A DNA stretch of 64,000 nt from Deltaproteobacteria bacterium (GTDB taxonomy: Bacteria; Myxococcota; Kuafuiibacteriia; Kuafuiibacteriales; Kuafuiibacteriaceae). The stretch lies in contig JAVJQW010000011.1 in NCBI GenBank assembly GCA_040218735.1, positions 384,001 to 448,000 on the forward strand, read 5' to 3'. The notes under the pieces were generated by a model, which saw nothing but the letters and a program-made list of their open reading frames with translations, had not been told where the DNA came from and ran no database searches. The stretch's first letter is position 1. Every line of letters begins with the position of its first letter. A program made the position numbers and the translations under genes. Positions 11,524 through 40,261 of the stretch are shown in pieces.

Positions 11524-12936
11524 TTAATGCTTCGGCTTGGTGAGCGGATCGAAGCGCGCGATCGGGTTGCGCGTCCCGGCGGCGTAGATCGTCAGTCCGC
11601 CGGAGCCGACCTGCGCGAAGTTGGTCCCGGACAGCGTCGGGTCGAACGTCGCGGGGTGGCCCCAGCTGTTCCTCAGGCGCGCGATCTCGGTCGGGTCGTA
11701 CTGCGGATCGTCGAGGTTCTTGCCGGCGCGGCGACTCAACGTCAGCGTCTGCTTCTTCCCGTCGTCGAGCGTCGACGCGTAGATCTGCGGCCCGCCCGGC
11801 TCGAGGAGCTGCAGCAGGCGATCGACGGTGAACGTCTCGTGGTCGCGTGTGATCTTCACGCGGTCGACGTCCTCGCCGTCCACCGTCACACGCGGCCGCT
11901 GCCCGACCGGCACCGCGTTGTCGCGCGCGGACGGGACGTAGTGATCGAAGTGCACCGCGTCGACGTCCGCGTTCGCCTGGTAAGCGAGCGGCGCGGACCA
12001 CAGCTTCTTCGAGTACATGTCCGGATTCTTCGGGAACCGGTACGACGCCTCGATCGCGGGCTCGGGCTCGTCCCCCTGGAACACCTTCACCGCGAAGCTC
12101 CCGCCGTCCGCGATCGTCGAACCGCTCCGCCGCACCATGCTCGGGGTGATCTCCACCGCCTGCACCATCTGACCGTCGATCTTCATCGGCCGCGGCGACA
12201 GCTGCGCCGCGCACTGATCCCCCGCCTCGTTCGTAATGAACACCCGCGCGCCGCTCGGCACCGTCACCACCACCGAGTCCTTCTGGAAGCCGTGCAGCTC
12301 GATGGTGTCGCCCGCCTTGCCGCGGCGCGGGAACAGGTCCGCCCAGCCGTTGCGCCGATACAACTTCGCGCCGTTCTTGCCCTCGGCGAGCGGCGTGAAC
12401 GTGCTATCGAGGTGCACCGTCGCGTCGCGCTCGGTGTGCGCCGGCCCCGCGGCCGACGCCGCGAACACCGTCGCGCGCTCGACCATCGCGCTGGTCATCG
12501 CCATCCGCGTCCCGGCGTAGCCCTTTCGGAGGCGCTCGAGCAGCTTCGTCGCGGTGATGCCATCGCCGTCCTCGGGCTTCGGGCGCAGGAAGTCGAGGAG
12601 GCCGGTGAACTTCTTCAGCTCGTCGAATGGGATCTCGGGGTCGCCGGGGCGCGCCGGGTGCTCGCGTGCCTCGCCGACCGACGTGGACAGGCTCGGATAC
12701 TCCGCCTTCGGCAGTGGCGTCGTGGTGTCGACGCGCTGGGTGGCGCGGAGGAGCTGCGCGGGGAGCTGCAGGTCGAGCAGCGCGGCGCGCCGTTGCAGGC
12801 TCGACAGATCGACGTAGCCGCCCGCGTCGCCCGTGAACGACGTCTTGACGCCCTTCGCCGCGTCGCCGTCCCGAAGACGCGCGAAGTCGTCCCCGCCGAA
12901 CCCAAACCTCTCGAGCGTCCTCAGACCGAGCTTCAC
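11524..12936 (-). CDS. Hypothetical protein (470 aa)
   Basis: Long ORF with GC-rich third codon positions and normal amino-acid composition; no motif recognised. Confidence 0.75.
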   Translation of the reverse strand: MKLGLRTLERFGFGGDDFARLRDGDAAKGVKTSFTGDAGGYVDLSSLQRRAALLDLQLPAQLLRATQRVDTTTPLPKAEYPSLSTSVGEAREHPARPGDPEIPFDELKKFTGLLDFLRPKPEDGDGITATKLLERLRKGYAGTRMAMTSAMVERATVFAASAAGPAHTERDATVHLDSTFTPLAEGKNGAKLYRRNGWADLFPRRGKAGDTIELHGFQKDSVVVTVPSGARVFITNEAGDQCAAQLSPRPMKIDGQMVQAVEITPSMVRRSGSTIADGGSFAVKVFQGDEPEPAIEASYRFPKNPDMYSKKLWSAPLAYQANADVDAVHFDHYVPSARDNAVPVGQRPRVTVDGEDVDRVKITRDHETFTVDRLLQLLEPGGPQIYASTLDDGKKQTLTLSRRAGKNLDDPQYDPTEIARLRNSWGHPATFDPTLSGTNFAQVGSGGLTIYAAGTRNPIARFDPLTKPKH

Positions 12937-12983: not shown

Positions 12984-15789
12984 TCACACCGAGCCGCCGG
13001 GATCCCCTTCGACGACGCCCGGACCTGGGCCATCCGCCGCATAGTAAGAGCCGGGGAACGGCGCGTCGCCCGCCGTCGCGAGCCGTTTCACCTGCGCCGC
13101 ACAGACCTTGTACTCCGCCGTCTGGGTGATCGGGTCACCCTGGTCGTTGGTCAGCAAGTTCGCGCGCGCCTCGGGGAAGTGCATCGGCATCCAGATGCAG
13201 CCGCGCCGCACCTGCCGCGACACGAGCGCACGCACCTCCACGCGCCCGCGCTTCGTCGTGACCTCGACCATGTCACCGTGCCCGATGCCCCGCATCTTGG
13301 CGTCGCGCGGGTGGATCTCGATCCACGCCTCGGGCTGCTTCTCGGCGAGCTGTGGTGTGCGCCGCGTCTGGGTCGCCGCGTTGTAGTGGTACAGCGTTCG
13401 GCCCGTCGACAGCACCAGCGGGTACGGCTCGGACGGCAGCTCCAACGACGGACGGTACTCGACCGCCTGGAACAAGCCCTTGCCGCGGAGCACTCGCCCC
13501 TCGTGCAGGTACTTCGTCCCGGGGTGTGTCTTGTCCTCGCACGGCCACTGCAGCCCCACGCCCTCGGCGTCGATGCGCGCGTGGCTGATGCCGATGAACT
13601 TCGGCGCATCGCGCACGAGCTCGTCGTAGACGGCGGAGGCCGAGTCGAAGCCCCAGTCCGCGCCGCACGCCGTCGCGAGGTCCACGAGGATCTCCCAGTC
13701 CGCCCGCGCCTGCCCCGGCGGCTCGACCGCCTTGCGGACGCGCTGCACCCGACGCTCGGAGTTCGTGAACACCCCCTCCTTCTCCGCGAAACACGCGGCG
13801 GGGAGGATCACGTCGGCGTAGCGCGCGGTCTCGTTGAGGAAGATGTCCTGCACGACCACGAAGTCGAGCTTGTTCATCCCCTCCTCGAGCTTCGTGACGT
13901 TCGGCTCGGAGATGACGATGTCCTCGCCCATGACGAACAGGCCTTTGATCTGCTTCCCGACGGCCTTCATCATCACGTTGAGGTTCATGCCCGGCTCGGG
14001 CGACAGCTCGACGCCCCACGCCGCCTCGTACTTCTTGCGCACCGCTTCGTCGTCGACGCGCTGGTACCCCGGGTAGAACACCGGCGACGCGCCCGCGTCG
14101 TTCGCGCCCTGCACGTTGTTCTGCCCGCGGAGCGGGTTCATGCCCGACGCCGGCCGACCGAGGTGCCCCGTCATCAACACGAGGTTCGACAGCGCGTACA
14201 CGTTGTCCGTGCCGTGGGAGTGCTCGGTGATGCCGAGTGTGTAGTAGATGCCGGCCTTCGGCGTGGTCGCGTACTTCCTCGCCGTCCAGCGGATGTCGTC
14301 CGCGGAGACGCCCGTGATCTTCTCGGCCTCCTCGGGTGTGTACATCGCGACGGTCTTCTTCACCGCCTCGAAGCCCTCGGTGTTCGTCTCGATGAACTTC
14401 GCGTCGACGAGCCCCTCCTCGACGATCACGTGCGCCATCGCGTTGAGCAGCCAGACGTCCGTCCCCGGACGCATCCTCAGGTGCTTCTCGGCGATGGTCG
14501 TCATCCAGATCGCGCGCGGGTCGGCCACGACCATCGTCGCGCCGCGCCGCACGGCCCGCTTCATCTCCATCGCGATGATCGGGTGCGCCTCGGACGTGTT
14601 GCTGCCGATGACCAGCAAGAAGTCCGCGTCGCGGATCTCACCGATCGAGTTCGTCATCGCTCCCGCACCAAACGTGGCGACCAGACCGGCCACCGTGGGA
14701 GCGTGTCAGGTCGCCGCGCATTGATGCGCGTTGTTCGTGCCGAACGCGGCACGGGCGAGCTTCTGCACGAGGTAGTTCTCCTCCATCGTGCAGCGGGACG
14801 AGGACACGAACCCCAGCGCGTCGGCGCCGTGGTCTCGTTTCACCTTCTTCAGGCCCTCCGCCGCGAAGCGGATCGCCTCCTCCCAGGTGGCTTCTTCGAG
14901 CCGCCCGTTCTTCCGAATGAGCGGCGTCTTCAGGCGGTCTTCGTGCTCGACGAACTCGTACGCGAAGCGCCCCTTCACACACAGGTTGCCGTCGTTCGGC
15001 GGCGTGCCCGGGGGCGGGCTCGTCACCTTCACCACGCGCCCGCGGCCTTCGTTGGCCTCGCGGTCCACGTTGAGGTCCATCTGGCAGCCGACCCCACAGT
15101 AGTTGCAGGTGGTGCGGACCTTCTCGAGCTCACGCTCCGGCTTCGCGAGCGTGACGAGCGGGATCTTCTCGGCCATCGCGCCCGTCGGACAGACGTCGAC
15201 GCAGCCGCCGCACAGCTCACACGTGGAGTCGACGAGCGAGACCTCGTCGACCGTGGAGATCGTCGTGTGGGCGCCGCGGTTCGTCAGGCTGATCGCGCTG
15301 ACGCCCTCGACCTCTTCGCAATAGCGCGTGCACCGAGCACACAGGATGCAGCGGTCCGCGCGGAACTGGATGTACTTGTTGCGGTCGGTGTCGCGCGACA
15401 TGCGCAGCGGCGCCATCGCCGGCCACGCGTCGTCGGCGCCGACGTCCTTCGCCATCTGGTGCAGCTCACACGGCGCGCCGTTCTCGCAGTTGTCGTGCCC
15501 CTGCACGTGGTCGGCGAGGTACAGCGACAAGAGCGCGCGCTGGTGACGCTTCACCCGGTCGGTCTCGGTGCGCACCACCATCTCGCCGTTCGCGGGCGTC
15601 GCGCACGCGGGGACGAGGCGGCGGGAGCCCTCGACCTCCACGAGGCACGTCCGGCACGCGCCGGCCGGCTTCAGGCGCGGGTCGTGGCAGAGCGTGGGGA
15701 TCTCGACGCCGTTCTTCTCGGCGACTTGGAGAATCGTCTCCCCCTCGCCGACGTCGACGAGCGCTCCGTTCAGCGAGAGTTTCTTGCCG

Positions 15790-15797
<8 letters not shown>
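12984..15797 (-). CDS. fdhF: Selenocysteine-containing formate dehydrogenase alpha subunit (937 aa with UGA read as Sec at 14706-14708)
   Basis: Two in-frame track ORFs join as NNAHQCAAT-U-HAPTVAGL..GAMTNS; N-terminal 2Fe-2S and 2x4Fe-4S motifs, CNYCGVGC, LCVKGRF, PLRGQNNVQG and a molybdopterin-binding C-terminal domain. Confidence 0.93.
14658..14705 (-). promoter_or_regulatory. Bacterial SECIS element
   Basis: Directly after the UGA: CGCTCCC/GGGAGCG lower stem and an upper stem around a GGUCU loop, in the same codon register as E. coli fdhF. Confidence 0.85.
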
Positions 15798-17430
<1,633 letters not shown>

Positions 17431-23549: not shown

Positions 23550-24785
23550 GTGGTCGCCAAGAAGCAGGATCGGCTGTTCAACCCGAACGGCCGCAAGCAC
23601 TACCGGCGCAAGTACAACCTCACGGAGGTGCGGATCGGCGCGGCGATCTTGCTCATGCTCGGCGCCGTGCTGGCTTGGGTCCTGTACAAGGGCCAACACC
23701 CCGACCCGGAGATCTACGCATCGAGCCCCGGCCAGGCGAACCGCGCGCCGACCAAAGCGATCGAGCGCGGACCCGTGCCGAAGGGGCTCGCGATGGAGGG
23801 CTGGCGGGAGGGTGAGCTGTCGACCTTCGACGACTCGAACCTCTACGAGAAGATCGACGGGCGCGAGGGCTTCTACAAGTCGTTCGGCTTCCAGCGCCTG
23901 TACTTCATCGCGCTCGGGAAGAAGGACGACCTCGCGGTCACCGTCGACATCGAGCTGTACGACCTCGGCTCCGGCGCCAACGCGCTGGGCGCCTTCTCGG
24001 GGGAGATTCCGCCCAACGCGTCGCCCGAGATCGGGGACGGCGGTTTGTCGGTCATCGATCGCAACGCGCTGTTCATGACGCGCGGGCGCTTCTACGCGCG
24101 CGGCATCGGCGCGGACGAGTCCGAAGCGGTGAAGGCGCAGCTCGCGTTCACGGCGGACACGCTCGCGAAGGGCCTGGAGGGTGAGGCGCTCCCGTGGAGC
24201 TACGCGCTGTTCGTGAGCGGGCTCGGCATCAACCCCGGCAAGGTCTCCTACCAGCCGGAGAACGCGTTCGGGTTCTCGTTCGCGAACGACGTGCACACCG
24301 CGATGCTCGAGGACGGCGAGACGGAGGTCTTCGTGGTCTCGCAGGCCGACGCGGCGGCGGCGACGGCGCTCGCGAAGTCGTTCGACGAAGGGTTCCTTCA
24401 GTACGGCGAGGTCAGTAAGACCGACGCTGGCGTGAAGTGGGTCGCGGACCGCTACCTGAACCGGGTGTCGGGCGCGAAGGCCGCGGACGTGTTCGTCGTC
24501 GGCGTGCGCTCCGCGGAGGACGTCGAGAAGGCCCAAGCGGCGCTCGCCAAGCTGGAGGCGGCGGTCGCGAAGATGTCGCCGGAGCAGAAGGCCCGCGCGC
24601 TCGACAAACCGAAGATCACCGGGTCGGGCGGCTACGACGACGCGCCCGAGGAGGCACCGGCCGAGGGCGAGCCTTCGCCGGAGGGCGAGCCTTCGTCGGA
24701 GGGCGAGCCTTCGTCGGAGGGTGAGCCGAGCTACGAGGGCGAGCCGCCGTCCGAGGGTGAGCCGAGCTACGAGGAGGGGTACTGA
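23550..24785 (+). CDS. DUF6599-like membrane-anchored protein
   Basis: One TM helix; FDDSNLYEKIDG.EGFY.SFGF, DIELYD.GS..NALGAFS; acidic repeat tail. Confidence 0.7.
   Translation: MVAKKQDRLFNPNGRKHYRRKYNLTEVRIGAAILLMLGAVLAWVLYKGQHPDPEIYASSPGQANRAPTKAIERGPVPKGLAMEGWREGELSTFDDSNLYEKIDGREGFYKSFGFQRLYFIALGKKDDLAVTVDIELYDLGSGANALGAFSGEIPPNASPEIGDGGLSVIDRNALFMTRGRFYARGIGADESEAVKAQLAFTADTLAKGLEGEALPWSYALFVSGLGINPGKVSYQPENAFGFSFANDVHTAMLEDGETEVFVVSQADAAAATALAKSFDEGFLQYGEVSKTDAGVKWVADRYLNRVSGAKAADVFVVGVRSAEDVEKAQAALAKLEAAVAKMSPEQKARALDKPKITGSGGYDDAPEEAPAEGEPSPEGEPSSEGEPSSEGEPSYEGEPPSEGEPSYEEGY
24663..24770 (+). repeat. Six 18-bp tandem repeats encoding EGEPxx
   Basis: GAGGG(C/T)GAGCC(T/G)NNNNNN x6, in frame at the 3' end of the DUF6599-like gene. 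Confidence 0.9.
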
Positions 24786-25963
24786 TGAAGAACCTGACGC
24801 GGCGGCAGATGCTCGCCGTCGGCACGGGCGCGGTGGGTGCTTCGATGCTCGGCGCCACGATCGGCGCGACGCGCTTGGAGGCCGCCGAGCCGCAGGTGCC
24901 GAAGAAGCGCCTCGGCAAGACCGGCGTCGACGTCCCGATCCTCGCGATGGGGATGGCGATGAAGTTCCACCCCCGCTTCGACCCGCGCCTCGCGGAGGCT
25001 GCGCGGCTCGGCGTCACGTACTTCGACACCGGCTACGTCTACGCGGGGGGCACGGTGGAGAGCGCCGTCGGGAGCTTTCACACGCGCGCGCGCAACCGCA
25101 AGGCGCTGTTCCTCTCCGGGAAGACGGAGCGCCACGACCGCGTCGAGAAGGACCTGCAAGACGGCTTGCGCAAGGCGCGCACGGACCACTTCGACCTGTA
25201 CATGCTGCACGGGCTCGGCGACCCGAAGACGCTGAACGCCGACATGGCGAAGCTCGTCGAGCGCCTGAAGAAGGAAGGCAAGATCCGCCACTTCGGCTTC
25301 TCGTGCCACGACGGCAACGTCCCCGAGCTCCTCCAGCTCGCGGCGAAGACGCCGTGGGTGGAGGTCGTCCAGTTCCGCTACAACTTCCGGCAGTACGGCG
25401 ACAAGAAGCTCAACGCCGCGATCGACGCCGCCGCGAAGGCCAACGTCGGGCTCGTCGCAATGAAGACGCAGGGCTCGGAGGCGTCGTTCACCGACGCGTG
25501 GAAGAAGTACGAAAAGACCGGCAAGTGGAACAAGTTCCAGGCGGTGATGAAGGCGGTGTGGGCCGACGAGCGGATCACGTCGATCGTCTCGCACATGGAT
25601 ACGTTCGAGAAGCTGAAGTCGAACGCGAAGGCCGCGATGTCGCGCGGCGAGATGGGCGCGGCGGACTGGGACGCACTGGAGCGTTACGCGAAGGCGACGC
25701 GACACCTCGCGTGTGACGGCTGTGATCACCACTGCAGCGCGGCGCTCGATCGCTCGGTGCCGTCCGTGCCGATCGGGACGGCGATGCGGTTCTTGATGTA
25801 CCACGACGCCTACGGCGAGACGGCGAAGGCCAAGGCGCTGTTCTCCGCGCTGGACCGTGATGTGATTCGCGCCGCCGACTTCTCCGCTTGCCAGGCGGCG
25901 TGCCCGCACGGCGTGGACGTCGCGCAGCACATGGACCGCGCGAAGCGACTCTTCATCGTCTGA
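24785..25963 (+). CDS. Tat-signal aldo/keto reductase with C-terminal Fe-S motif (paralog 1)
   Basis: TRRQML Tat motif; LGKTG, FDTGYVY, K, LHG, GFSCH, AMKT; CDGCDHHC...CPHG. Confidence 0.9.
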   Translation: MKNLTRRQMLAVGTGAVGASMLGATIGATRLEAAEPQVPKKRLGKTGVDVPILAMGMAMKFHPRFDPRLAEAARLGVTYFDTGYVYAGGTVESAVGSFHTRARNRKALFLSGKTERHDRVEKDLQDGLRKARTDHFDLYMLHGLGDPKTLNADMAKLVERLKKEGKIRHFGFSCHDGNVPELLQLAAKTPWVEVVQFRYNFRQYGDKKLNAAIDAAAKANVGLVAMKTQGSEASFTDAWKKYEKTGKWNKFQAVMKAVWADERITSIVSHMDTFEKLKSNAKAAMSRGEMGAADWDALERYAKATRHLACDGCDHHCSAALDRSVPSVPIGTAMRFLMYHDAYGETAKAKALFSALDRDVIRAADFSACQAACPHGVDVAQHMDRAKRLFIV

Positions 25964-35102: not shown

Positions 35103-36107
35103 TCAGCCCAACCGCGACTTCACGGCGGCGGTGAACGTCTGCGTCGTCCCGCTGCCCCCGAGGTCGGGCGTCGTGCCGTCGCCCTTCGCGATCGTCTCCC
35201 GGAGCGCCGAGCGCAGGCGGTCGGCCTCCTCGGTGTGCCCGAGGTGCATCAACATCATCGCGGCCGACATCGCGAGCGCGGTCGGGTTCGCGATGTTCCG
35301 GCCGGCGATGTCCGGCGCCGTGCCGTGGATCGCCTCGAAGATCGCGAGCTCCTCGCCGTAGTTGCCGGAGGGCGCCAACCCGAGGCCACCGACGAGGCCG
35401 GCGGTGAGGTCGGAGAGGATGTCGCCGAACAGGTTGGTCGTGACCACGACGTCGAACTGCGTGGGCCGCATCACGAGCTGCATCGCCATCGCGTCGACGA
35501 TGCGGTCCTCGAACTCGATGTCCGGATACTCCTGCGCGATCTCGCGGCCCACGGTGAGGAAGAGCCCCGTCGTCAGCTTCAGGATGTTCGCCTTGTGGAC
35601 GAGCGTGACCTTCTTGCGGTTGTTCTTACGCGCGTACTCGAACGCGAAGCGGATGATCCGGTCCGACGCGAAGCGCGAGATGAACGAGATCGCCTGCGCG
35701 GCGTCCTTCTTCGGATCGATGTAGTGCTCGATCCCGGAGTACAGCCCCTGCGTGTTCTCGCGGACGACGATCAGGTCACACTCCTCGAAGCGCGTCTTGA
35801 CCCCCTCGTAGGCGCGCGCCGGTCGCACGTTTGCGTACAGGTCGAGCTCCTGCCGCATCCCGACGTTCACGCTCCTGAAGCCCCCGCCGACGGGCGTGGT
35901 GAGCGGCGCCTTCAGCGCGACCTTGTTCTTGCGGATGGAGGCGAGTGTGTCGCCCGGGAGGTGGGTCCCGTGCTCGCGCACGGCGTTCTCACCCGCGTGG
36001 CGCTCCTCCCACTCGATCGCGACCCCCGTGGCCTCGACCAGCTCGATCGTCGCGTCCATCACCTCGGGGCCGATCCCGTCCCCGCGAATCATCGTCACCT
36101 TCGTCAT
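35103..36107 (-). CDS. icd: Isocitrate/isopropylmalate dehydrogenase family, probably NAD-dependent isocitrate dehydrogenase
   Basis: [47 protein letters not shown] and [12 protein letters not shown]. Confidence 0.88.
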
Positions 36108-36252
36108 CTCGCCGCGGCTCTTACGGAGTCGGGGCCGATTCGTAAACACCCGACAATCCCTGAATCGGGCGCAAACAGTCCGGAGGGCCCCGGCATTCCC
36201 GCCACGAAACGGGGTGCGGTCCGCCCCGTGGGCGCGTATCATTCGCGTCGCC

Positions 36253-37313
36253 GTGTCGGACGACGAAAAGCTCCCCGAGGCCCCGTCGGCCGAGGAGCGC
36301 GAACATCACGATCAGGAGCGGCGACAGTTCCTGAAGCAGGCGTCGATCGTCGGCGGCGCGGCGCTGGGCGCCGGCTACCTCTCCCTGGCCCCGAGCGGGT
36401 GGCCCGGGTCACTGAAGGACGCGACCGGCGAGCTCGGCAAGCCGAAGAAACGCGAGCTCGTGCTCCCGGAGAACGGGTTCGCCGTCGAGAAGAGCGCGGT
36501 GGCCGCGCACCTCGGCGTCGCGCGCGGTGAAGATCCCAAGAAGCTCCTCCGCGGCGCGATCGACGCGATCGGCGGCATCGGCCGCTTCATCACCAAGGGT
36601 GACATCGTCGTCATCAAACCGAACGTCGCCTTCGAGCGCTCCGCACCGCTCGGCGCGACCTCCAACCCCGAAGTCGTCGCCGAGCTCATCCAGCTCGTCC
36701 GCGACGCCGGCGCGGACGAGATTCGCGTCGCCGACAACCCGATCGAGTCGCCGGAGAGCTGCTTCGTCCGCAGCGGGATCCAAAAGGCGGTCGTCGAAGC
36801 CGGCGCGCGGCTCTACCTGCCGCGCTCCTCGGACTTCGAGACGCTCAAGACCCCCGGCGCGAAGTGGATCGAACGGTGGCCGTTCTTCTGGGCGCCCTTC
36901 ATGGGCGCGACGAAGGTCATCGGCATCGCGCCGGTGAAGGACCACAACCTCTGCCGCGCGTCGATGACGACGAAGAACTGGTACGGGCTCCTCGGCGGGC
37001 GTCGTAACCAGTTCCACCAGGACATCCACGGGATCATCTCGGACCTGGCGCTGATGCTCCGGCCCACGTTCGTGATCCTCGACGGCAGCCGTGTGTTGTT
37101 CCGCAGCGGTCCGACGGGCGGGAGCCTCTCGGACGTCCGCCCCGGCAAGACGATCGTCGCGTCGACCGACTCGCTCGCGGCGGATGCGTTCGGCTGGGAC
37201 GACCTGCTGTGGCGCAAGGGTGAGCCGCTCCCCGACTACTTCGCGCAGGCGGCGGCGCGCGGCTTGGGCAACCCGGACTACAAGTCGGTGGCGATCAAAG
37301 AGGTCCAGATCGG

Positions 37314-37317
<4 letters not shown>
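36253..37317 (+). CDS. DUF362-domain protein with Tat-like signal
   Basis: ERRQFLK; [30 protein letters not shown] and TDSLAAD. Confidence 0.85.
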
Positions 37318-39061
<1,744 letters not shown>

Positions 39062-39065
<4 letters not shown>

Positions 39066-40261
39066 CGAAGAAAAAGGGACTCACGCGACGCGACCTGTTG
39101 ACGATCGGCGGCGCGGGCGTCGGCGCCGGAGCGCTCGTCACGATCGGCGGGACGAAGCCGGCGTTCGCCGCGAAGAAGGACGACCTGCCGCAGGTGCCTC
39201 GGAAGAAGCTCGGGAAGACCGGCGCCGAGATCCCGATCCTGTTGTTCGGTGGCGCGGTGAAGCTCGACAAACGCTTCGACCCGAAGATCGCGGAGGCGCT
39301 GCGGTTCGGCATGAACTACATGGACGCCGCGGACTGCTACGGCGGCGGCGCGAACGAGTACGCGGTGGGCAACTTCCTGCAGCGCTCACGCACGCGCGAC
39401 AAGTGGTGGATCACGACGAAGAGCGACCCCACCGACCCGGACGGCATCGAGGCGACGCTGAACAAGAGCCTCGAGAAGATGAAGGTGAAGAGCGTCGAGA
39501 TGCTCTACCTCCACGGAATCGACGACGTGAACGTGCTGACGACAGACGTCGCGAAGCGCGCCGAGAAGCTGAAGAAGGAAGGCAAGATCAAGTACTTCGG
39601 TTTCTCGTGCCACGGCGGCAGCGTGAACGACCTGCTGAACAAGGCGTCGACCCTCTCGTGGATCGACTCGATCATGTTCAAGTACAACTTCCGCACGTAC
39701 GGCGACAAAGAGCTCAACGCGGCGATCGACAAGTGCGCGAAGTCGAACGTCGGGCTCATCGCGATGAAGACGCAGGGCTCCGAGGCCTCGTTCGCGGACG
39801 CCTGGAAGAAGTTCGAGAAGACGGGCAAGTGGACGAAACACCAGGCGGTGCTGAAGGCGGTCTGGGCGGACGAGCGCATCACCGCGGCCGTCTCGCACAT
39901 GGATACGTTCGACAAGCTGAAGCAGAACGTCGCCGCCGCGTGTGACAAGTCGAAGCTGTCGTCGCTGGAGATGGACGCGCTCGAGAAGTACGCCGCGGTC
40001 ACGCGCTCGCTCGCGTGCGACGGGTGCGATCACCACTGCAACCCGGCCGTCGAGGGCGACGTGCTGATCGGCACGACGATGCGGTACCTGATGTACCACG
40101 ACCACTACGGCGAGACGGAGAAGGCGAAGGAGTTCTTCGCCGCCCTCCCCGACGCCGCGCGACGCCTCGAGCACATGGACTTCACGAAGGCCAACGCGGC
40201 CTGCCCGAACGGCATCGACATCGCGGCGCACATGGAGCGCGCGGTGAAGGTGCTGACCTGA
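39062..40261 (+). CDS. Tat-signal aldo/keto reductase with C-terminal Fe-S motif (paralog 2)
   Basis: TRRDLL Tat motif; LGKTG, DAADCY, TK, LHG, GFSCH, AMKT; CDGCDHHC...CPNG. Confidence 0.9.

Follow-up and report, generated by a model that had tools for sequence, protein, structure and literature searches.

A formate dehydrogenase alpha-subunit gene of a myxobacterial lineage with an in-frame UGA almost certainly read as selenocysteine

The fdhA frame and its internal UGA

The 64,000-nucleotide stretch of DNA analysed here, referred to as the window (positions 384,001 to 448,000 of contig JAVJQW010000011.1, assembly GCA_040218735.1, from a bacterium assigned to the Myxococcota), carries a gene, fdhA (12984..15797, minus strand), for the alpha subunit of a formate dehydrogenase (FDH). 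Read from 15797 to 12984 on the minus strand, the gene has 937 codons and a single internal stop, a TGA at codon 364 (14708-14706) that, to judge from the sequences of the gene and its relatives, is almost certainly read as selenocysteine (Sec). The translation around this codon is HQCAAT*HAPTVAGLV, and alignment of the relatives places the inferred Sec364 (14706..14708, minus strand), which is counted among the 937 amino acids, in the column of the metal ligand.

An open reading frame (ORF) finder returns two ORFs in one and the same frame, 14706..15797 (363 aa) and 12984..14693 (569 aa), the second of which opens at a GTG at 14693 and is separated from the TGA by four sense codons (H, A, P and T). 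This arrangement had been claimed in an earlier reading of the letters alone (the original prediction), along with the context CAAT-UGA-HAPTVAGL, a hairpin with a GGUCU loop and a length of 937 aa, and translation bears out each of these statements; the original prediction was silent on the strand, which is the minus one, and the plus-strand translation of the same coordinates, an Arg-rich frame with nothing gene-like in it, was rejected. Codon bias is unbroken across the stop, the GC content of third codon positions (GC3) being 0.93 upstream and 0.94 downstream of the TGA.

UGA is also an ordinary stop codon in this DNA, since it ends 21 of the 33 window ORFs that have Pfam support, the partner gene fdhB among them, and 34 of the 77 complete fdhA frames. 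A genome-wide reassignment of UGA to Trp (table 4) or Gly (table 25) would likewise open the fdhA frame, but it is contradicted by these terminal TGAs, by the 11 TGG codons within the gene and by the column itself, which demands Cys or Sec; reassignment is effectively excluded, its probability being vanishingly small. When the window was scanned for further UGA read-through, the codon filter left 3 of 1178 candidates; of these, 49009 was rejected as the normal stop of a homoserine dehydrogenase gene and 50197 as the end of a metallophosphoesterase gene.

The FdhA protein

The read-through protein scores 819.3 bits against TIGR01591 and passes the curated cut-off of 666.25, whereas its separate halves, with 148.9 and 636.2 bits, both fall below it. 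Pfam recognizes a 2Fe-2S domain, an Nqo3-type ferredoxin domain, a molybdopterin Fe4S4 domain and two molybdopterin domains, the catalytic one of which (residues 288-709) bridges the internal stop. Within 12984..15797 (minus strand) the gene is thus predicted to encode an N-terminal module with one [2Fe-2S] and two [4Fe-4S] clusters, a proximal [4Fe-4S] cluster and the domains that would hold Mo or W in bis-molybdopterin guanine dinucleotide (bis-MGD); since the Fer2 domain lies right at the N-terminus, there is no space for an export leader.

The fdhA genes conserve sixteen cysteines, which would bind one [2Fe-2S] and three [4Fe-4S] clusters. UGA364-H365, R557, K275 and C273 are invariant in 81 of 81 genes that have the TGA, and C231, C234 and C238 are found in 79 of the 81; by reference to FdhF of Escherichia coli we take these residues to be the Cys/Sec-His metal ligand, the active-site Arg and the Cys and Lys of the proximal [4Fe-4S] cluster. 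An AlphaFold model made with C at position 364 and a 102-row alignment has a predicted local distance difference test (pLDDT) value of 89 and a predicted template-modelling (pTM) score of 0.90, and matches 9ktl_A, 7vw6_A, 6tg9_A, 8j83_A and 8rqz_C with TM scores (by query) of 0.90-0.92. These are whole alpha chains of NAD+-linked FDHs, and the match indicates compatibility only, such folds probably being in the training data. The assignment of FdhA as an FDH alpha subunit of the Mo/W-bis-MGD type is supported by the family score, the predicted domains and the conserved residues.

The UGA column in related genes

A genome scan with six peptides chosen away from the UGA gave 423 confirmed fdhA relatives; all counts on related loci refer to the best 80 of these 423, with 60-80% identity, and the sets of 81 TGA genes consist of the window gene and these 80 relatives. 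Alignment of homologues at the UGA column had been put forward in the original prediction as a check on the Sec assignment, and the result agrees with it: TGA stands at the codon-364 column in 80 of 80 related loci, exactly one internal stop being present in every frame read, and Cys stands there in 82 of 82 proteins that cover the column among the best 120 database matches, with the reservation that the tools used may print some U as C. The other 38 of the 120 are C-terminal fragments starting at residue 369 (26 proteins) or 381 (12 proteins), so that the expectation that annotation pipelines would split genes of this kind just past the UGA is also confirmed. TGA364 aligns with the codon 140 TGA of E. 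coli fdhF (sequence of the K-12 record) and faces the Cys of 6tg9_A (Rhodobacter FdsA), 9wxb_B and 7vw6_A (MeFDH1, the FDH1 of Methylorubrum extorquens), as well as an X in 9t1s_L.

These data bear directly on the possibility that a pseudogene, a sequencing error or two separate genes are at hand, a nonsense mutation having broken an ordinary Cys-containing FDH. One substitution suffices to turn TGC into TGA, two ORFs are called with a GTG start five codons past the TGA, and the 38 database fragments are C-terminal pieces of just this sort. A broken gene, however, would not be expected to share its TGA with all 80 related genomes, some of them only 60% identical, and to have no second internal stop in the frames read; moreover, the downstream piece would be devoid of both the metal ligand and His365, no purine run resembling a Shine-Dalgarno sequence is seen by eye ahead of the GTG, and the constraint on silent sites just past the UGA (see below) would be left unexplained. 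A disrupted or split gene is effectively excluded, being very improbable on this evidence.

By phylum label the related loci comprise 28 from Planctomycetota, 21 from Myxococcota, 11 from Pseudomonadota and 7 from Acidobacteriota, the remainder being 4 rows of one phylum each and 9 with no phylum label, for a total of eight phyla. These are intermixed on a FastTree phylogeny of the clade, the phylum label changing 24 times where 7 changes would be the minimum; cross-phylum transfer of fdhA is plausible and mis-binning of contigs is possible. A plasmid search returned relatives only below 60% identity. As for the host, an isocitrate dehydrogenase-family housekeeping enzyme of the window has 99% identity to a protein assigned to a Deltaproteobacteria metagenome-assembled genome, its further named relatives being from Deltaproteobacteria, Myxococcota and Polyangiaceae, and the host is probably a high-GC relative of the Myxococcota. 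On the FastTree phylogeny, five Cys-containing proteins (P0003, P0005, P0006, P0007 and P0054) are nested in the TGA clade or branch next to it; P0003 and P0005 have also changed HAP to HDP, and the five possibly represent Sec-to-Cys reversions.

The SECIS hairpin

Folding and conservation identify the segment 14676..14694 (minus strand) as the upper stem-loop of a bacterial Sec insertion sequence (SECIS), with 7 bp and a GGUCU loop. The hairpin, GGUGGCC-GGUCU-GGUCGCC, begins after 11 nt from the UGA, with 18 nt from UGA to loop, and is both the minimum free energy and the centroid structure of a 39-nt stretch. Its 5-nt loop with G in first position, spacing of 18, 7-bp stem and energy of -11.8 kcal/mol agree with all the constraints of the consensus bacterial SECIS (bSECIS) model, as these are quoted in PMC13188914. 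A 7-bp hairpin with a G-first loop in this register follows one of the 1186 TGA triplets of the window, a count that is descriptive only, the pattern having been derived from this very site. Across the clade, the fixed-register hairpin follows 81 of 81 internal TGAs, but of the 34 TGAs that end these genes it follows 1, and the loop reads GGUCU in 75 of the 81, GGGCU in 5 and GGACU in 1.

The segment is constrained beyond its coding content. Silent changes mapped on the tree number 3, 2, 4, 2 and 2 at V369, A370, G371, L372 and V373, respectively, compared with a median of 25 over 169 fourfold sites, so that stem and loop contain the five least-changing of all these sites, the next lowest having 8 changes; the Gly371 codon is GGT in 75 of 81 genes, and GGT encodes 7 of the 80 Gly residues of the window gene. 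The third bases of V369 and V373 form G-C in 49 genes and C-G in 31 and are unpaired in 1 (n=81), and these two positions are the top mutual-information pair out of 14196 site pairs (0.91 vs 0.28 for the next one), while the third bases of A370 and L372 form C-G in 79 genes and G-C in 2. On the tree the V369/V373 pair accounts for about 2 independent compensated events and A370/L372 for 2, with 1 uncompensated change (L068). In a 60-column alignment 92% of the cells are paired, 45 with a two-sided change, a level that 0 of 500 shuffles reached and that compares with 17-61% in slid-register controls.

The conclusion of the original prediction that this is one Sec-containing FDH alpha subunit is therefore sustained by four elements, namely the family score of the joined frame, the Cys/Sec identity of the column, the TGA in 80 of 80 loci and a SECIS under selection.

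fdhB and the gene neighbourhood

Upstream of fdhA lies fdhB (15790..17430, minus strand; 546 aa from the first ATG), which according to Pfam (PF01257, PF01512, PF10531 and PF10589) encodes a diaphorase subunit in which NuoE and NuoF are fused, and whose end overlaps the start of fdhA by 8 nt (ATGAGTGA). The predicted sites are a [2Fe-2S] cluster, a flavin mononucleotide (FMN)/NAD(P)H site and a [4Fe-4S] cluster, and the top match in the Protein Data Bank is the beta subunit of MeFDH1 (7e5z_B, E 1e-97). An fdhB homologue is present in 67 of the 80 related loci and adjoins fdhA in 65; in L031 and L045 it lies ~1.8 kb and 4.3 kb upstream, respectively, and is not adjacent. Of the 13 loci with no homologue, 7 end short upstream. 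Most likely, to judge from domain content and gene order, fdhB and fdhA form an operon of two genes that encodes a cytoplasmic Mo/W-bis-MGD FDH of the MeFDH1 build, with two subunits and a link to NAD(P)+.

No further fdh gene is seen beside this pair, and no cofactor or transporter gene lies nearby to show tungsten or NAD+ specificity. Recurrent neighbours in the related loci, defined as families present in at least 3 loci and restricted to low-Arg families, 11 representatives of which were run on Pfam, consist of FdhD, formate-tetrahydrofolate (THF) ligase and unrelated genes, with no sel gene among them. fdhD is near fdhA in 7 of the 80 loci and formate-THF ligase in 4 (L021, L029, L046 and L059, e.g., L059 12765-15551); the latter is not seen near the window fdhA, and where present it hints at one-carbon metabolism as a source of formate.

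Directly after fdhA there is a 470-aa ORF (11524-12936, minus strand) with a coding-like bias; Pfam, NCBIfam and Atlas give no match to it and none of the 80 related loci contains it, and it was therefore rejected as a part of the FDH system. Elsewhere in the window, the segment 17324-20423 (plus strand) comprises an ORF of 714 aa that weakly matches a RoxA-like cytochrome c and, after it, a membrane domain like that of ferric reductases and a glutaredoxin-like domain whose frames overlap, the gene boundaries being putative; genes for a DUF362 protein, a 4Fe-4S membrane-type protein and an aldo/keto reductase-family protein stand in a row at 35896-40261 (plus strand), and a second aldo/keto reductase-family gene is found at 24785-25963.

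Comparison with known formate dehydrogenases

The likeness to E. coli FdhF (Sec140) invoked in the original prediction was verified on the sequence, CARV*HGPSVAGL being found at codon 140 with a GGUC loop equally far from the UGA. The two proteins have 39.8% identity over residues 224-907 and share the UGA column, the H-x-P-x-V-A-G-L that follows it and the distance of the SECIS loop. FdhF works together with hydrogenlyase and has no counterpart of the N-terminal Fe-S module of 220 residues. The parallel thus holds for the Sec column and the SECIS register and fails for the architecture, the N-terminal Fe-S module and the NuoE+NuoF partner being those of NAD+-linked FDHs.

Among the latter, MeFDH1 (Fdh1AB; 7vw6, 7e5z) has the same two subunits, with a beta subunit like FdsG plus FdsB, and an alpha subunit with three [4Fe-4S] and one [2Fe-2S] clusters from which the extra cluster is absent (TM 0.91). 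It differs in having W as its metal and Cys436 where the window FdhA has the UGA and a probable Sec, and the identity of the alpha subunits is only 37%. FdhAB would work like MeFDH1 and is not assigned as its orthologue, the Cys ligand of MeFDH1 being replaced here by the UGA. The top alpha-subunit scores, with 41-42% identity and the same domain order, are obtained with the FdsABG(D) enzymes of Rhodobacter and Cupriavidus (6tg9, 9ktl), which according to PMC13397495 have Cys as ligand, FdsG and FdsD as subunits of their own and an additional [4Fe-4S] cluster; in the window, by contrast, NuoE is fused to NuoF, the extra-cluster motif is degenerate and the downstream ORF belongs to no Pfam family. 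A precedent for a selenium FDH linked to a pyridine nucleotide is the NADP-dependent W-Se-Fe enzyme of Moorella thermoacetica described in PMC10221389. M. thermoacetica differs in being a strict anaerobe and acetogen.

The extra-cluster site corresponds to 15468..15509 (minus strand), where motif comparison reveals a degenerate form of the His/3Cys [4Fe-4S] site, H97-x3-H101-x2-C104-x5-C110. The canonical motif, H-x3-C-x2-C-x5-C, is present in 76 of 81 full-length Cys-containing database matches and in RcFdsA, in contrast to none of the 78 TGA genes that cover the site (window included) and to the MeFDH1 alpha subunit; PF10588 has no match in FdhA, and residues 101-110 of the model have a pLDDT of 56. 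MeFDH1 has one cluster fewer than RcFDH according to the account in PMC10869683, and by analogy the missing motif would mean a missing cluster in FdhA. The remnant H-x3-H-x2-C-x5-C is common to the window gene, L055, L059 and L070, most of the clade having no Cys there, and its 2His/2Cys site may represent either a transitional stage in the loss of the cluster or a metal site of another kind.

Decoding of the UGA and proposed mechanism

Comparison of sequences alone establishes the single frame, the position of the UGA in the metal-ligand column, the conservation of the hairpin as RNA and the presence of the partner gene, and from these we infer, with a probability of about 0.93, that SelB-dependent insertion of Sec at codon 364 would yield a cytoplasmic alpha-beta FDH in which formate electrons pass via Sec-ligated Mo or W, Fe-S clusters and FMN to NAD(P)+. 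The mechanism of SelB is established in E. coli, and on that model SelB-GTP-Sec-tRNA(Sec) would bind the GGUCU-loop hairpin past the UGA, so that codon 364 would be decoded as Sec, the Se of which would ligate Mo or W beside His365 and Arg557. If the enzyme operates like MeFDH1 (PMC10869683), the electrons would travel through the three [4Fe-4S] clusters and the [2Fe-2S] cluster of the alpha subunit to the [4Fe-4S] cluster and the FMN of the beta subunit, which would reduce NAD(P)+. The likely role would be the oxidation of formate arising from one-carbon and catabolic metabolism, and without selenium or selABCD translation would end at codon 364.

A number of observations weigh against this reading. 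The energy of the hairpin is ordinary, with z values of 0.22, 0.07 and 0.13 in 49-, 39- and 91-nt stretches (69% GC), although a 22-nt stretch gives z -2.19 (6 of 200 shuffles), and in the 91-nt fold an alternative pairing beats it; loose bSECIS rules also accept 19 of the 34 terminal TGAs, the generic model by itself being a weak discriminator. The covariation is mostly inherited, so that the counts are inflated by kinship; 36 of the 80 distinct rows do not form the outermost pair; and the E. coli element has a 4-nt loop and a bulged U, whereas the window hairpin has an unbroken 7-bp stem, with no such U, and a 5-nt loop. The hairpin, ordinary by energy, is nonetheless under strong selection at the RNA level and exceeds chance because of its position and conservation. 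As to the surroundings, 6 related loci with room upstream have no fdhB, fdhD was not found near the window fdhA, and the alpha subunit is nearer the Mo-containing Rhodobacter FdsA (752-767 bits) than the W-containing MeFDH1 (643 bits). Finally, motifs for SelA, SelB and SelD gave 0 matches in 1.42 Mb (window plus 80 flanks), the patterns having no sel positive control, and ARAGORN made no call in the window and 5 in the 80 loci, tRNA-Sec not being among them. In the same 1.42 Mb, motifs for ModA/TupA and for MobA also gave 0 matches and the FdhD motif was found at 6 loci, and Rfam at gathering scores yielded nothing in the 64-kb window. A 94-nt ARAGORN tRNA-Arg call after fdhA in L073 (13263-13356) was considered as a Sec-type tRNA and rejected, since by eye it is antisense in coding sequence.

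The main residual rival is that fdhA is a true Sec-type gene by descent that is silent here, its host having no sel genes through recent horizontal gain or loss of the machinery. Besides the failure to find sel genes in the window, the patchy taxonomy of the clade (the 24 label changes mentioned above) speaks in its favour, as does the fact that several Planctomycetes isolates, indeed most of those listed in PMC5029168, are Sec-negative. This alternative is nevertheless unlikely: GC3 of fdhA agrees with that of the host genes, relatives with 97% and 87% identity imply that the gene has persisted in the lineage, and gene and SECIS are both intact. Furthermore, strains of Myxococcus, Haliangium, Anaeromyxobacter and Plesiocystis are listed as Sec-positive in PMC5029168, even if Sorangium So ce 56 is listed as Sec-negative, and Plesiocystis pacifica, entered there as SelD+ and Sec+ with 6 selenoproteins, carries in strain SIR-1 a TGA orthologue of fdhA (L036).

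A tRNA that is charged with Cys, depends on SelB and is guided by the SECIS would also leave an identical signature in the DNA if it decoded the UGA as Cys. selC-like Cys tRNAs exist, but they are rare and lineage-restricted, and no such tRNA was seen near any related locus; this, together with the SelD and Sec trait of P. pacifica as listed in PMC5029168, makes decoding as Cys highly improbable, and insertion of Sec remains the preferred explanation.

Significance

The kind of gene is already well known, FdhA being the most widespread bacterial selenoprotein according to statements in PMC5029168, PMC13188914 and PMC13326102; Table 3 of PMC5029168 gives 1276 Sec-FdhA proteins in 822 organisms, and Sec use is reported there as equally common in aerobes and anaerobes. 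A literature search on selenocysteine, FDH and myxobacteria or Planctomycetota found no paper on the present clade, subscription papers being mostly outside its coverage, and the genes of the clade may well be present in BSepDB, which screened P. pacifica, E. salina and Poly30.

We would suggest, tentatively and with more doubt than confidence, that the gene points to a cross-phylum clade, so far uncharacterised, of FDHs that depend on Sec, are linked to NAD(P)+ and have two subunits and six clusters. Its carriers are labelled Myxococcota, Planctomycetota, Acidobacteriota and others, and include Plesiocystis and Enhygromyxa, which are aerobic marine myxobacteria. Should the enzyme be oxygen-tolerant, it would unite the simple build of MeFDH1 with Sec as ligand, which none of the three model NAD+-FDHs treated in PMC13397495 does, all three being described or tabulated there as Cys enzymes. 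An NAD(P)+-linked FDH that depends on Sec, has the simple two-subunit build and occurs in cultured organisms would offer enzymology a lead on the role of Se in FDH catalysis, the Cys forms P0003, P0005, P0006, P0007 and P0054 providing natural Sec/Cys pairs with which to probe the contribution of selenium, and might be of value for CO2/formate biocatalysis; the usefulness of such a lead, a Sec enzyme built like MeFDH1, is modest, and as biology the gene is ordinary. Because its members are cut at the UGA, the clade is mostly invisible in protein databases, and with relatives stored as half-proteins both formate oxidation and selenium use are under-called in these genomes.

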